A stretch of 64,000 nucleotides of DNA from a plasmid, in the NCBI RefSeq assembly GCF_058153355.1, contig NZ_JBLWLY010000002.1. One strand, 5' to 3'. Positions within the stretch are counted from its first letter, which is position 1. Each line of letters starts with the position of its first letter. This document shows positions 49,881-50,958 of this stretch, in pieces. A program made the position numbers and the translations under genes. The notes below the pieces were generated by a model, which was not told the origin of the DNA, searched no databases, and saw nothing but the letters and a program-made list of their open reading frames with translations.

Positions 49881-50184
49881 ACATGGGGTTTGAGGGACAA
49901 CCGGACGAAAACGTTCGATTTAGGGCACTAAAACCGCTGCTGTTCCCTCATTCAGTGACTGCCCCAGGTTTTTTTCATGCTCTCCAAGATAGGTGTTTCT
50001 GGGCTCTGTTTGGGAAACGTAATCCTATCACACATTTACACCACTGAATTAGATTTCGATTGTGGAGTAATATCTTTAGTAAATAAATTTAGTCTTTCTT
50101 TTTCAGTTGAGAAAATATATCTCTTGGCTTGGGTTGCATTTTTCTTACTAATTAAGTCTGATATATGTTGTGGAGTATTTATTG

Positions 50185-50541
50185 TCAATTACCAAGTGGG
50201 TAGTATTTATGTGTGAAATAGTTATTTCTTGAAGCATTTTTATGACATAAAACTCCTTTAATATACTCTTTCCTTTTATAAAAAAGATGCATTCCGACTA
50301 CAAAACTTGGATATAAATCCTCTAGTGTCTTAAAAAGATCCTCAATGAAGTTGTTTTTACTATCATCAATATAAATAGTGTGCCTGTACATTTGGCCACA
50401 AATTTTTGTGGCATTAAGAGGAACAATTCTTTCTTTTATTTGCTTCTTGCTAGCGTCTATTTTAACAAAACCATAAACTGTATCTTTCCCGACATGTGGA
50501 TCTTTAGATGTTATTTTAAACTGTCTGATATAGTCAACCAA
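50185..50541 (-). CDS. Hypothetical protein (118 aa) in an AT-rich island
   Basis: Only sizeable ORF in the very AT-rich 49.9-50.9 kb stretch; no recognisable motif. Confidence 0.3.
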   Translation of the reverse strand: MVDYIRQFKITSKDPHVGKDTVYGFVKIDASKKQIKERIVPLNATKICGQMYRHTIYIDDSKNNFIEDLFKTLEDLYPSFVVGMHLFYKRKEYIKGVLCHKNASRNNYFTHKYYPLGN

Positions 50542-50958
50542 CAGACGTATCGTGTACTAATCATATGGGGGGGCTGTTGGTTGTTTTCCTGCTTCGACAT
50601 AACAAATCTTTCTGGTTCATGTGGTTAAATAACTGTTCATCATACGCCGGAGGAGACTTAACAAAAAATTCCCCTATGTTGCCTCGTGACAGGACGTAGC
50701 TACCAGTGAATGCTGCGCATGGCGGTTTTGGTGTCCGATATCGTACAAAACTTACCCGTCAGCCTATTCATGTATTGCGCCTGTGGCACACACGAGAAAA
50801 CAGGTAGATTGTGTGTGGAGGAAACATGATTCCTTTCGTGTTATACCGCATGTTTTTTCTACTAACATTTTTTATGATAATCTGAATATTCGTAAAAATC
50901 CGATTTTTTAGTATGTATAAAAGAAGAGCAGGTAATTGACTGAACCTGCTCTTTTTTA

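Follow-up and report, generated by a model that had tools for sequence, protein, structure and literature searches.

What is the very AT-rich DNA, about 1 kb long, that separates the second copy of pemK from the partition gene stbB in the plasmid contig NZ_JBLWLY010000002.1 (RefSeq assembly GCF_058153355.1), and does it still serve any purpose? Within the 64,000 nucleotides (nt) of this contig that we analyzed (the window), an original prediction made from the letters alone had described an island behind pemK, at 49889-50950, holding a single hypothetical open reading frame (ORF) and a short motif shared with a miniature element nearby, and had proposed either a remnant of transposon cargo or a regulatory region. 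Our analysis indicates that the island is very probably what is left, in a broken and non-functional form, of an accessory gene from the DUF4238 family, which was damaged by three deletions and carries scars of mobile elements at its edges.

The sharp change in composition that had been predicted is real. The GC (guanine plus cytosine) content drops from 0.542 in pemIK (49289-49880) to 0.307 (50000-50540) directly 3' of the second pemK, while the right border is gradual, with a value of 0.39 across stbB-parM (50959-52114) and an AT-richness that persists to ca. 52400. The gene at the left border (49548-49880, plus strand) is intact, with 110 amino acids (aa) in the ORF list and a pemK-mt annotation in the homologous loci L001, L002, and L003, and it is indeed a second copy, pemIK being present at 46122-46713 and again at 49289-49880. 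To set the limits of the island proper we used the alignment to CP028383 (L002), an example of the common IncF arrangement in which stbB follows ca. 115 bp past pemK with no island. The shared backbone stops at 49952 and restarts at 50916, leaving an island of 963 bp (49953-50915) with a GC content of 0.356, compared with 0.364 for 49889-50950 and 0.466 for the whole window. The predicted ORF of 118 aa (50185-50541, minus strand, TTG start) exists and is the longest in the island, but it is not the only one, since another of 50 aa lies at 50036-50188 on the minus strand and the plus strand has four more (79, 82, 44, and 42 aa).

The key to the island is the plasmid CP025893 (L001), where an insert of 2,065 bp at the same pemK-stbB site comprises an intact gene of the DUF4238 family (ca. 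362 aa; WP_001297754.1), the 3' stub of a parE gene, and an ORF of 90 aa. The window aligns with L001 in four blocks, at identities of 96.5 to 98.7%: 49048-50187 (L001 3168-4307), 50188-50533 (L001 4852-5197), 50529-50816 (L001 5314-5599), and 50826-52054 (L001 6048-7280). Three stretches are missing. The first, of 544 bp (L001 4308-4851, absent between 50187 and 50188), lies within the gene and is frameshifting. The second, of 116 bp (L001 5198-5313, between 50533 and 50534), took the start codon, the first 15 to 16 codons, and 69 bp upstream, and shows 4 to 5 nt of microhomology at its junction. The third, between 50825 and 50826, took the 90-aa ORF. The combined loss amounts to the start codon, the invariant N terminus, and the middle half of the gene, together with the 90-aa ORF. 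We also considered the 9 nt GGAGGAAAC (50817-50825) as filler DNA, which was ruled out by a further locus, L012, that has the same 9 nt in place and so makes the third deletion a clean loss of 439 bp. That the missing stretches are deletions in the window and not insertions in L001 follows from two other relatives: a homologue in a P2-like prophage (L006) can be aligned along the whole of L001 4184-5246, in the same order and with no large gap, and the Salmonella IncFII plasmid L004 keeps the 90-aa ORF at the same place, adjoining stbB.

Two pieces of the gene survive, both on the minus strand. The N-proximal one (50188-50533) corresponds to codons 16 to 131 of the 362-aa protein (L001 4852-5197, 97% DNA identity), and the C-terminal one (50036-50187) to the last 50 codons and the stop (L001 4156-4307, 98%), which align to the C termini of 17 homologues. 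Descent from the gene annotated in L001 as a DUF4238 protein (4156-5265) thus rests on DNA identities of 97 to 98% in both fragments. In an alignment with the 17 homologues, the 118-aa and 50-aa ORFs are 95% and 94% identical, respectively, to the L001 protein, and taken together they lack codons 132 to 312. The 118-aa ORF begins at codon 16, after an N-terminal block (Q-H-Y-L-P ... Y-x-R-x-F) that is invariant in the 17 homologues and lost here. One of the deletion junctions supplies its first residues, and the triplet directly past the other serves as its stop codon.

The 118-aa ORF is therefore a pseudogene fragment, the largest surviving in-frame piece of a dead gene. A chance TTG opens it, and the stop created at the first deletion junction closes it. 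One could argue instead for a functional truncated or new small protein, given 118 uninterrupted codons that are 95% identical to the matching part of the intact protein. Such a protein would have lost the invariant N-terminal block, would start at a TTG with no Shine-Dalgarno sequence in the 15 nt before it (ACACGATACGTCTG), and would end at a stop made by a deletion junction. Furthermore, the 118-aa ORF has no match in Pfam, PADLOC, or NCBIfam (neither this nor the 50-aa fragment matches PF14022, the DUF4238 profile), and no such form appeared among 5.8 billion clusters, the search for homologues giving only full-length proteins of 357 to 390 aa. We give this idea almost no credence, and a spurious "hypothetical protein" drops out of the annotation.

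To trace the intact segment we searched 72,556 plasmids (PLSDB). By megablast, 2,770 of them matched 49881-50960, only 18 covering at least 80% of the query, and in these 18 records the match was split into four pieces over ca. 2.18 kb, under an annotated "DUF4238 domain-containing protein." With 50534-50748 alone as the query, there were 19 carriers, enterotoxigenic Escherichia coli (ETEC) strains including B7A, E. albertii, E. marmotae, and bovine E. coli, and the complete RefSeq E. coli genomes showed the same distribution. The insert lies in the same pemK context in all 19, and the left breakpoint (...CCCTCAT) is common, to within 1 nt, to the empty backbone and the DUF4238-bearing form. 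The pemK-stbB gap of IncF plasmids has at least three states: empty, parDE-orf90, and DUF4238. The 90-aa ORF (MNYDEITKITAERISDYM...) is identical in L001 (5697-5969) and L004 (3155-3427), located between parE and stbB. It gave only a weak ParD_like match (E value of 0.052) and none in PADLOC or NCBIfam, and the whole parD-parE-orf90 stretch, used as a query, retrieved 706 PLSDB records with at least 80% coverage.

The intact protein belongs to a small subfamily (18 clusters at 90% identity), all from Enterobacterales. The 18 full-length proteins in the alignment all match PF14022 and share 55 invariant columns, including Q10-H11-Y12-L13-P14. The closest homologue, with 66% aa identity and with 77% DNA identity over the coding sequence (CDS) only, is found in P2-like prophages, where it is flanked by the tail genes gpS and gpV; another adjoins MobA and an Eco57I-type methylase. 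Wherever the DUF4238 CDS is found its GC content is 0.29, so that the AT-richness of the island is the foreign gene's own composition. None of the solved structures convincingly matched the AlphaFold model of the intact protein. In E. coli, strong T7 resistance is conferred by a single DUF4238 protein that comes from a hotspot of P2-like prophages, its molecular function being unknown (Rousset et al. 2022, PMC9122126). By family and context, the intact plasmid gene is probably an anti-phage gene as well, in which case the allele of ETEC, E. albertii, and E. marmotae would be part of a small Enterobacterales subfamily of a defense family.

The edges of the island tell of mobile elements. On the left, pemK is followed by a backbone tail of 67 bp (49886-49952, plus strand), beginning GGGGTTTGAGGGACAACCGGACGAAAAC..., which carries the relic of a gamma-delta-type terminal inverted repeat (IR) of the Tn3 family (GGGGTTTGAGGGACAACCGGACGAAAACGTTCGATTTAGG...); positions 49886-49931 align at 38 of 46 with the IR GGGGTTTGAGGGCCAATGGAACGAAAACGTACGTTAAGA, quoted as that of a Tn3-family transposon (PMC8560879). 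The island itself begins with the solo terminal IR stub (49953-49988, 36 bp, minus strand) of an ISKra4-family insertion sequence (IS) resembling ISEc51. This stub was recognized by homology to L012, where 5085-5127, the end of a truncated ISKra4-family element (NCBIfam NF033572, 9.8e-47; annotated in RefSeq as ISKra4/ISEc51 transposase), matches window 49945-49988 at 91%, inverted. Its junction with the backbone shows microhomology of the form CCC(T/C)CATT.

At the right edge, the 27-nt motif GCGGTTTTGGTGTCCGATATCGTACAA (50722-50748, plus strand) stands exactly at the junction with a fragment of a parE/relE-family toxin gene. This fragment (50749-50825, plus strand) consists of the last 18 codons and the stop (50749-50807) plus 18 nt downstream. 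It is 91% identical to L004 2990-3057, where an intact gene for ParE ends (PF05016, 1.8e-16), the homology starting exactly at 50749, in codon 73. We also examined the motif as a diverged continuation of parE, because a BLASTP alignment runs 9 residues into it (GGFGVRY versus GEYEIRY). The DNA upstream of 50749 is at chance level, however (local score of 16 versus a shuffle mean of 17.7), and the Pfam profile ParE_toxin misses the 76-aa reading frame, so this candidate was rejected. Downstream of the stub, 50826-50958 corresponds to the segment between the 90-aa ORF and stbB in relatives, with the common backbone restarting at 50916; it contains a hairpin AAGAGCAGG/CCTGCTCTT (50924-50953) with A and T runs at its sides that resembles a bidirectional terminator.

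The motif is shared, as had been noted, with a miniature element of 287 bp (45471-45757, plus strand), where the second copy lies at 45562-45588 and matches at 26 of 27 positions; both copies had been placed 1 nt off. None of 100 dinucleotide-preserving shuffles of the window gave two matches to the motif at three mismatches or fewer. A third, more diverged copy (49913-49939, opposite strand) agrees at 22 of 27 positions, as part of 39 nt that are 77% identical to 45548-45586, and covers the inner end of the IR relic and adjacent bases; its local score against the reverse complement of the motif was 34, with a shuffle mean of 14 and a maximum of 20. The borders of the motif are sharp on both sides, and neither the gamma-delta IR itself nor its subterminal sequence resembles it. 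Inside it there is a single 16-bp dyad, TGTCCGATATCGTACA, which presumably recalls the half-sites of the gamma-delta resolvase, and a relaxed pattern search found only the three known copies. From its likeness to the inner part of the IR relic, we take the motif to be a probable mobile-element scar, a piece of a Tn3-type end that stayed behind at an old breakpoint. The miniature element has terminal IRs of the Tn3-family type, with 45-nt arms that are 82% complementary, and is present in 2,152 PLSDB plasmids; its closest known counterparts are Tn3-derived miniature elements (TIME- or IS101-like). Within 44873-45757, a stretch that includes this element, genes for a Gp49/HigB-like toxin (103 aa, PF05973) and a helix-turn-helix antitoxin (95 aa) end exactly at its start (45471).

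These scars also allow a more specific account of how the gene arrived, namely, that a non-autonomous element of the Tn3 family brought in the DUF4238 segment as its passenger. The relic at 49886 (GGGGTTTGAGGG...) would be the left IR of that element. The motif, whose inverted orientation is the correct one, would represent the inner part of the right IR, the outer 27 nt having been lost on fusion to parE. The resemblance of the left relic to the gamma-delta-type IR, the score of the motif against the inner end of that relic, well beyond the shuffle maximum, and the inverted placement of the two copies, which bracket the DUF4238 part, all speak in its favor. However, the left relic belongs to the common backbone even without cargo, as in L002, and the ISKra4 stub stands between it and the gene. 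Where a second IR of ca. 38 bp would be expected, the right side offers a 27-nt piece resembling an inner IR, with no GGGG tip and fused to parE. There is no 5-bp target duplication either: the left flank reads ...TGAACAT directly after the pemK stop and then GGGG, and the right flank is codon 73 of parE. No transposase or resolvase gene (tnpA, tnpR) was found in 44000-56000, no free-standing IR-DUF4238-IR copy among the 19 carriers, and the homology to the prophage copy is confined to the CDS. We consider this route of arrival unlikely; it is in any case compatible with the island being a decayed DUF4238 gene.

Between the N-proximal gene fragment and the motif lies the former upstream region of the gene (50534-50721; L001 5319-5504), in which a non-coding segment of ca. 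146 nt (50535-50680) is conserved in unrelated plasmids too. Positions 50562-50674 were matched at 78 to 88% in nine further, unrelated PLSDB records. In the two plasmids that we examined, L014 (CP057065, 316-2907) and L013 (CP057981, 2460-2893), the segment is situated ca. 45 nt upstream of an 81-aa basic ORF of no family, and in one of the two, a plasmid of 6.7 kb, it also lies beside a divergent gene for a 741-aa protein without a Pfam match. A sigma-70 scan of the segment did not reveal a promoter by a simple criterion, with promoter and terminator scans at background level. An Frpo-like single-strand promoter hairpin at 50560-50700 was considered and rejected, as DNA folding showed no significant single-strand structure: the z scores were +1.4 and +2.1 for the window, compared with -0.6 and -1.0 for L013. 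The pemK-stbB gap of IncF plasmids might be a slot for the exchange of cargo, in which short portable sequences are used repeatedly as junctions for interchangeable, probably anti-phage genes. One of them would be the promoter-like segment of ca. 146 nt, whose neighbors in unrelated plasmids are different cargo genes in divergent orientation, and the other the 27-nt Tn3-type end. We find this improbable; if true, one such cassette would survive, dead, in the window.

The same conserved segment bears on the regulatory reading, according to which the island would serve its neighboring maintenance genes as a centromere, an operator, or a nucleation site for a silencing protein, with the motif and its dyad TGTCCGATATCGTACA as a protein-binding site. 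The region is AT-rich and mostly non-coding, the motif recurs with sharp borders in two otherwise unrelated contexts, and the ca. 146 nt are kept upstream of a small ORF in unrelated plasmids. Yet pemIK and stbAB work in thousands of related plasmids that have no island DNA. Moreover, no iterons occur in the island, which is situated downstream of stbB, whereas three 22-nt repeats that look like parC-type centromere iterons are found at 52245-52350, immediately upstream of parM. In L004 the motif is kept at 25 of 27 positions and the miniature element at 93% overall, so that the motif does not stand out from its surroundings. It holds one dyad only, whereas a res site is an array of three subsites over ca. 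120 bp; no resolvase gene lies nearby, and a search of 44000-53000 against Rfam gave no match at an E value threshold of 1. Finally, stbB and parM are dead themselves. A regulatory or structural role thus seems to us very unlikely.

Of what the original prediction had proposed, the regulatory region finds no support. The remnant of transposon cargo stands in its first half, the island being the decayed rest of a segment that is intact in 19 IncF plasmids, with mobile-element scars at its borders. The transposon half is unproven: there is no complete second IR, target duplication, transposase, or resolvase, and the right end is a parE junction. Of the outcome that had been named in advance as refuting the prediction, half came true, since the ORF proved to be conserved, if solely as a piece of a known gene family, and the motif does resemble part of a sequence of the IR type.

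The likely history of the island can be summarized as follows. An accessory segment with the DUF4238 gene and its upstream region, the 3' stub of parE, and the 90-aa ORF once stood between pemK and stbB. At the left edge the ISKra4-family IR stub is fused to the Tn3-type IR relic behind pemK, and at the right edge the 27-nt motif to codon 73 of parE. Three separate deletions (544, 116, and 439 bp) broke the segment, leaving a remnant that probably has no present function. Several points weigh against this interpretation. The intact protein scores just above threshold with PF14022 (30.8 bits; cut-off of 27) and only over profile positions 1 to 76 of 281, and it has no match in PADLOC 2.0 or NCBIfam. 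The promoter-like conserved segment 50535-50680 survives in the remnant, and a sequence cannot prove the absence of function. In addition, the three deletions rest on one sequence, as the decayed allele was found in no PLSDB plasmid, complete RefSeq E. coli genome, or species-representative genome.

This uniqueness would also be expected if the deletions were artifacts of assembly or sequencing and the real plasmid carried an intact DUF4238 gene. The junction of the 544-bp deletion has no exact match in 100,044 species-representative genomes (GTDB). However, the three junctions are separate and clean and lie in non-repetitive DNA, one of them with the microhomology described above, and the neighboring genes carry two independent lesions. 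Scattered point differences, 1.3 to 3.5% from all relatives, indicate a separate lineage, and AT-rich unique sequence does not typically cause collapsed assemblies. We regard an artifact as extremely improbable and retain the decay of a DUF4238 gene as the explanation.

The two lesions next to the island affect the ParMR-type partition locus. The parR-like gene stbB (50959-51350, minus strand; PF10784 Plasmid_stab_B, 6.6e-26) has a 4-nt deletion near 51321 compared with L001, leaving an ORF of 119 aa with a GTG start instead of the 131 aa of L001. Likewise, parM/stbA (51350-52240, minus strand) lacks 71 nt near 52046 that are present in L001, and its 254-aa ORF matches the Pfam families ParM_N and StbA_N, the latter beginning at position 79 of 158 of the profile. 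Judged by these lesions, the locus is dead. The window also carries genes for the MxiD secretin (370-2070), MxiA/FHIPEP (3163-5229), IcsA/VirG (24743-28051, minus strand), and a VirA/EspG-family protein (28544-29782), and its best DNA matches are plasmids of Shigella dysenteriae, S. sonnei, S. flexneri, and enteroinvasive E. coli (EIEC). By gene content and similarity, then, it is part of a Shigella/EIEC invasion plasmid (pINV). This plasmid has had, and lost, a DUF4238-type gene beside a partition locus that has decayed as well.

To the left of the island, the duplication comprises the 3' part of the gene for a CAAX protease, pemI, and pemK (45883-46730 and 49050-49900, at ca. 98% identity). 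The two copies flank the 3' remnant of ISEc20 (46716-46918) and a complete IS21 of 2,131 bp (46919-49049), and an identity of ca. 98% and not 100% speaks more for the recombination of two plasmids than for simple duplication. Some IS110-family elements target the IRs of Tn3-family elements. Here the IS110-like ISEc20 remnant (46714-46918) lies directly against the Tn3-type IR relic that follows the first pemK, at the GGGG tip of the relic. Farther away, two 410-aa ORFs (36768-38000, minus strand, and 60598-61830, plus strand) have reverse-transcriptase/maturase domains of group II introns with identical scores, which suggests that one intron is present twice, in opposite orientations. Pairs of ORFs of 390 and 266 aa also occur twice, inverted and ca. 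32 kb apart (13249-15218, plus strand, and 46979-48948, minus strand). The second pair is istA/istB of IS21 by Pfam and the first was judged on ORF size only; if both are IS21, they may form a substrate for inversion.

Compared with known systems, the island is a case of ordinary gene decay, nothing new in kind and not a new element. With Tn3-family elements it shares the relic in the pemK tail (38/46 to the gamma-delta-type IR), IRs of 38 to 45 bp of the GGGG...TAAG type in the 287-bp element, and the resemblance of the motif to the inner IR part of that relic. It differs from them in the lack of transposase, resolvase, res array, and target duplication, and from Tn3-derived miniature elements in that the motif is located inside the 287-bp element and not at its ends. 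Like the DUF4238 system described previously (PMC9122126), the intact allele of the sister plasmids exceeds the PF14022 gathering score and is a single AT-rich gene of ca. 360 codons in an accessory slot of mobile elements. In contrast to that system, the window has a pseudogene damaged by three deletions. Furthermore, the match of even the intact plasmid subfamily is limited to the N-terminal quarter of the profile, with no PADLOC match, and the prophage slot is gpS-gpV, whereas the hotspot of that study is gpA-gpQ.

The surroundings follow the IncFII (R100-type) backbone in gene order (repA, CAAX-protease gene, pemI, pemK, stbB, and stbA [parM]), with 94 to 99% DNA identity on both sides of the island. 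They depart from it in having 963 bp of decayed cargo instead of ca. 115 bp, in the broken stbB and parM, and in the duplication of pemIK around the ISEc20 remnant and IS21. As in other invasion plasmids, in which decay and IS-driven rearrangement have been described (PMC5629016, PMC6519299), there are many IS elements and several pseudogenes alongside mxiD, mxiA, icsA, and virA. None of the Shigella plasmids in PLSDB was found to have a DUF4238 remnant, however. StbAB is functional in the pINV of S. flexneri and absent from S. sonnei (PMC6519299). Unlike in the latter, stbAB is present here but broken by small deletions, an inactivation in keeping with the known trend of pINV toward the loss of maintenance functions.

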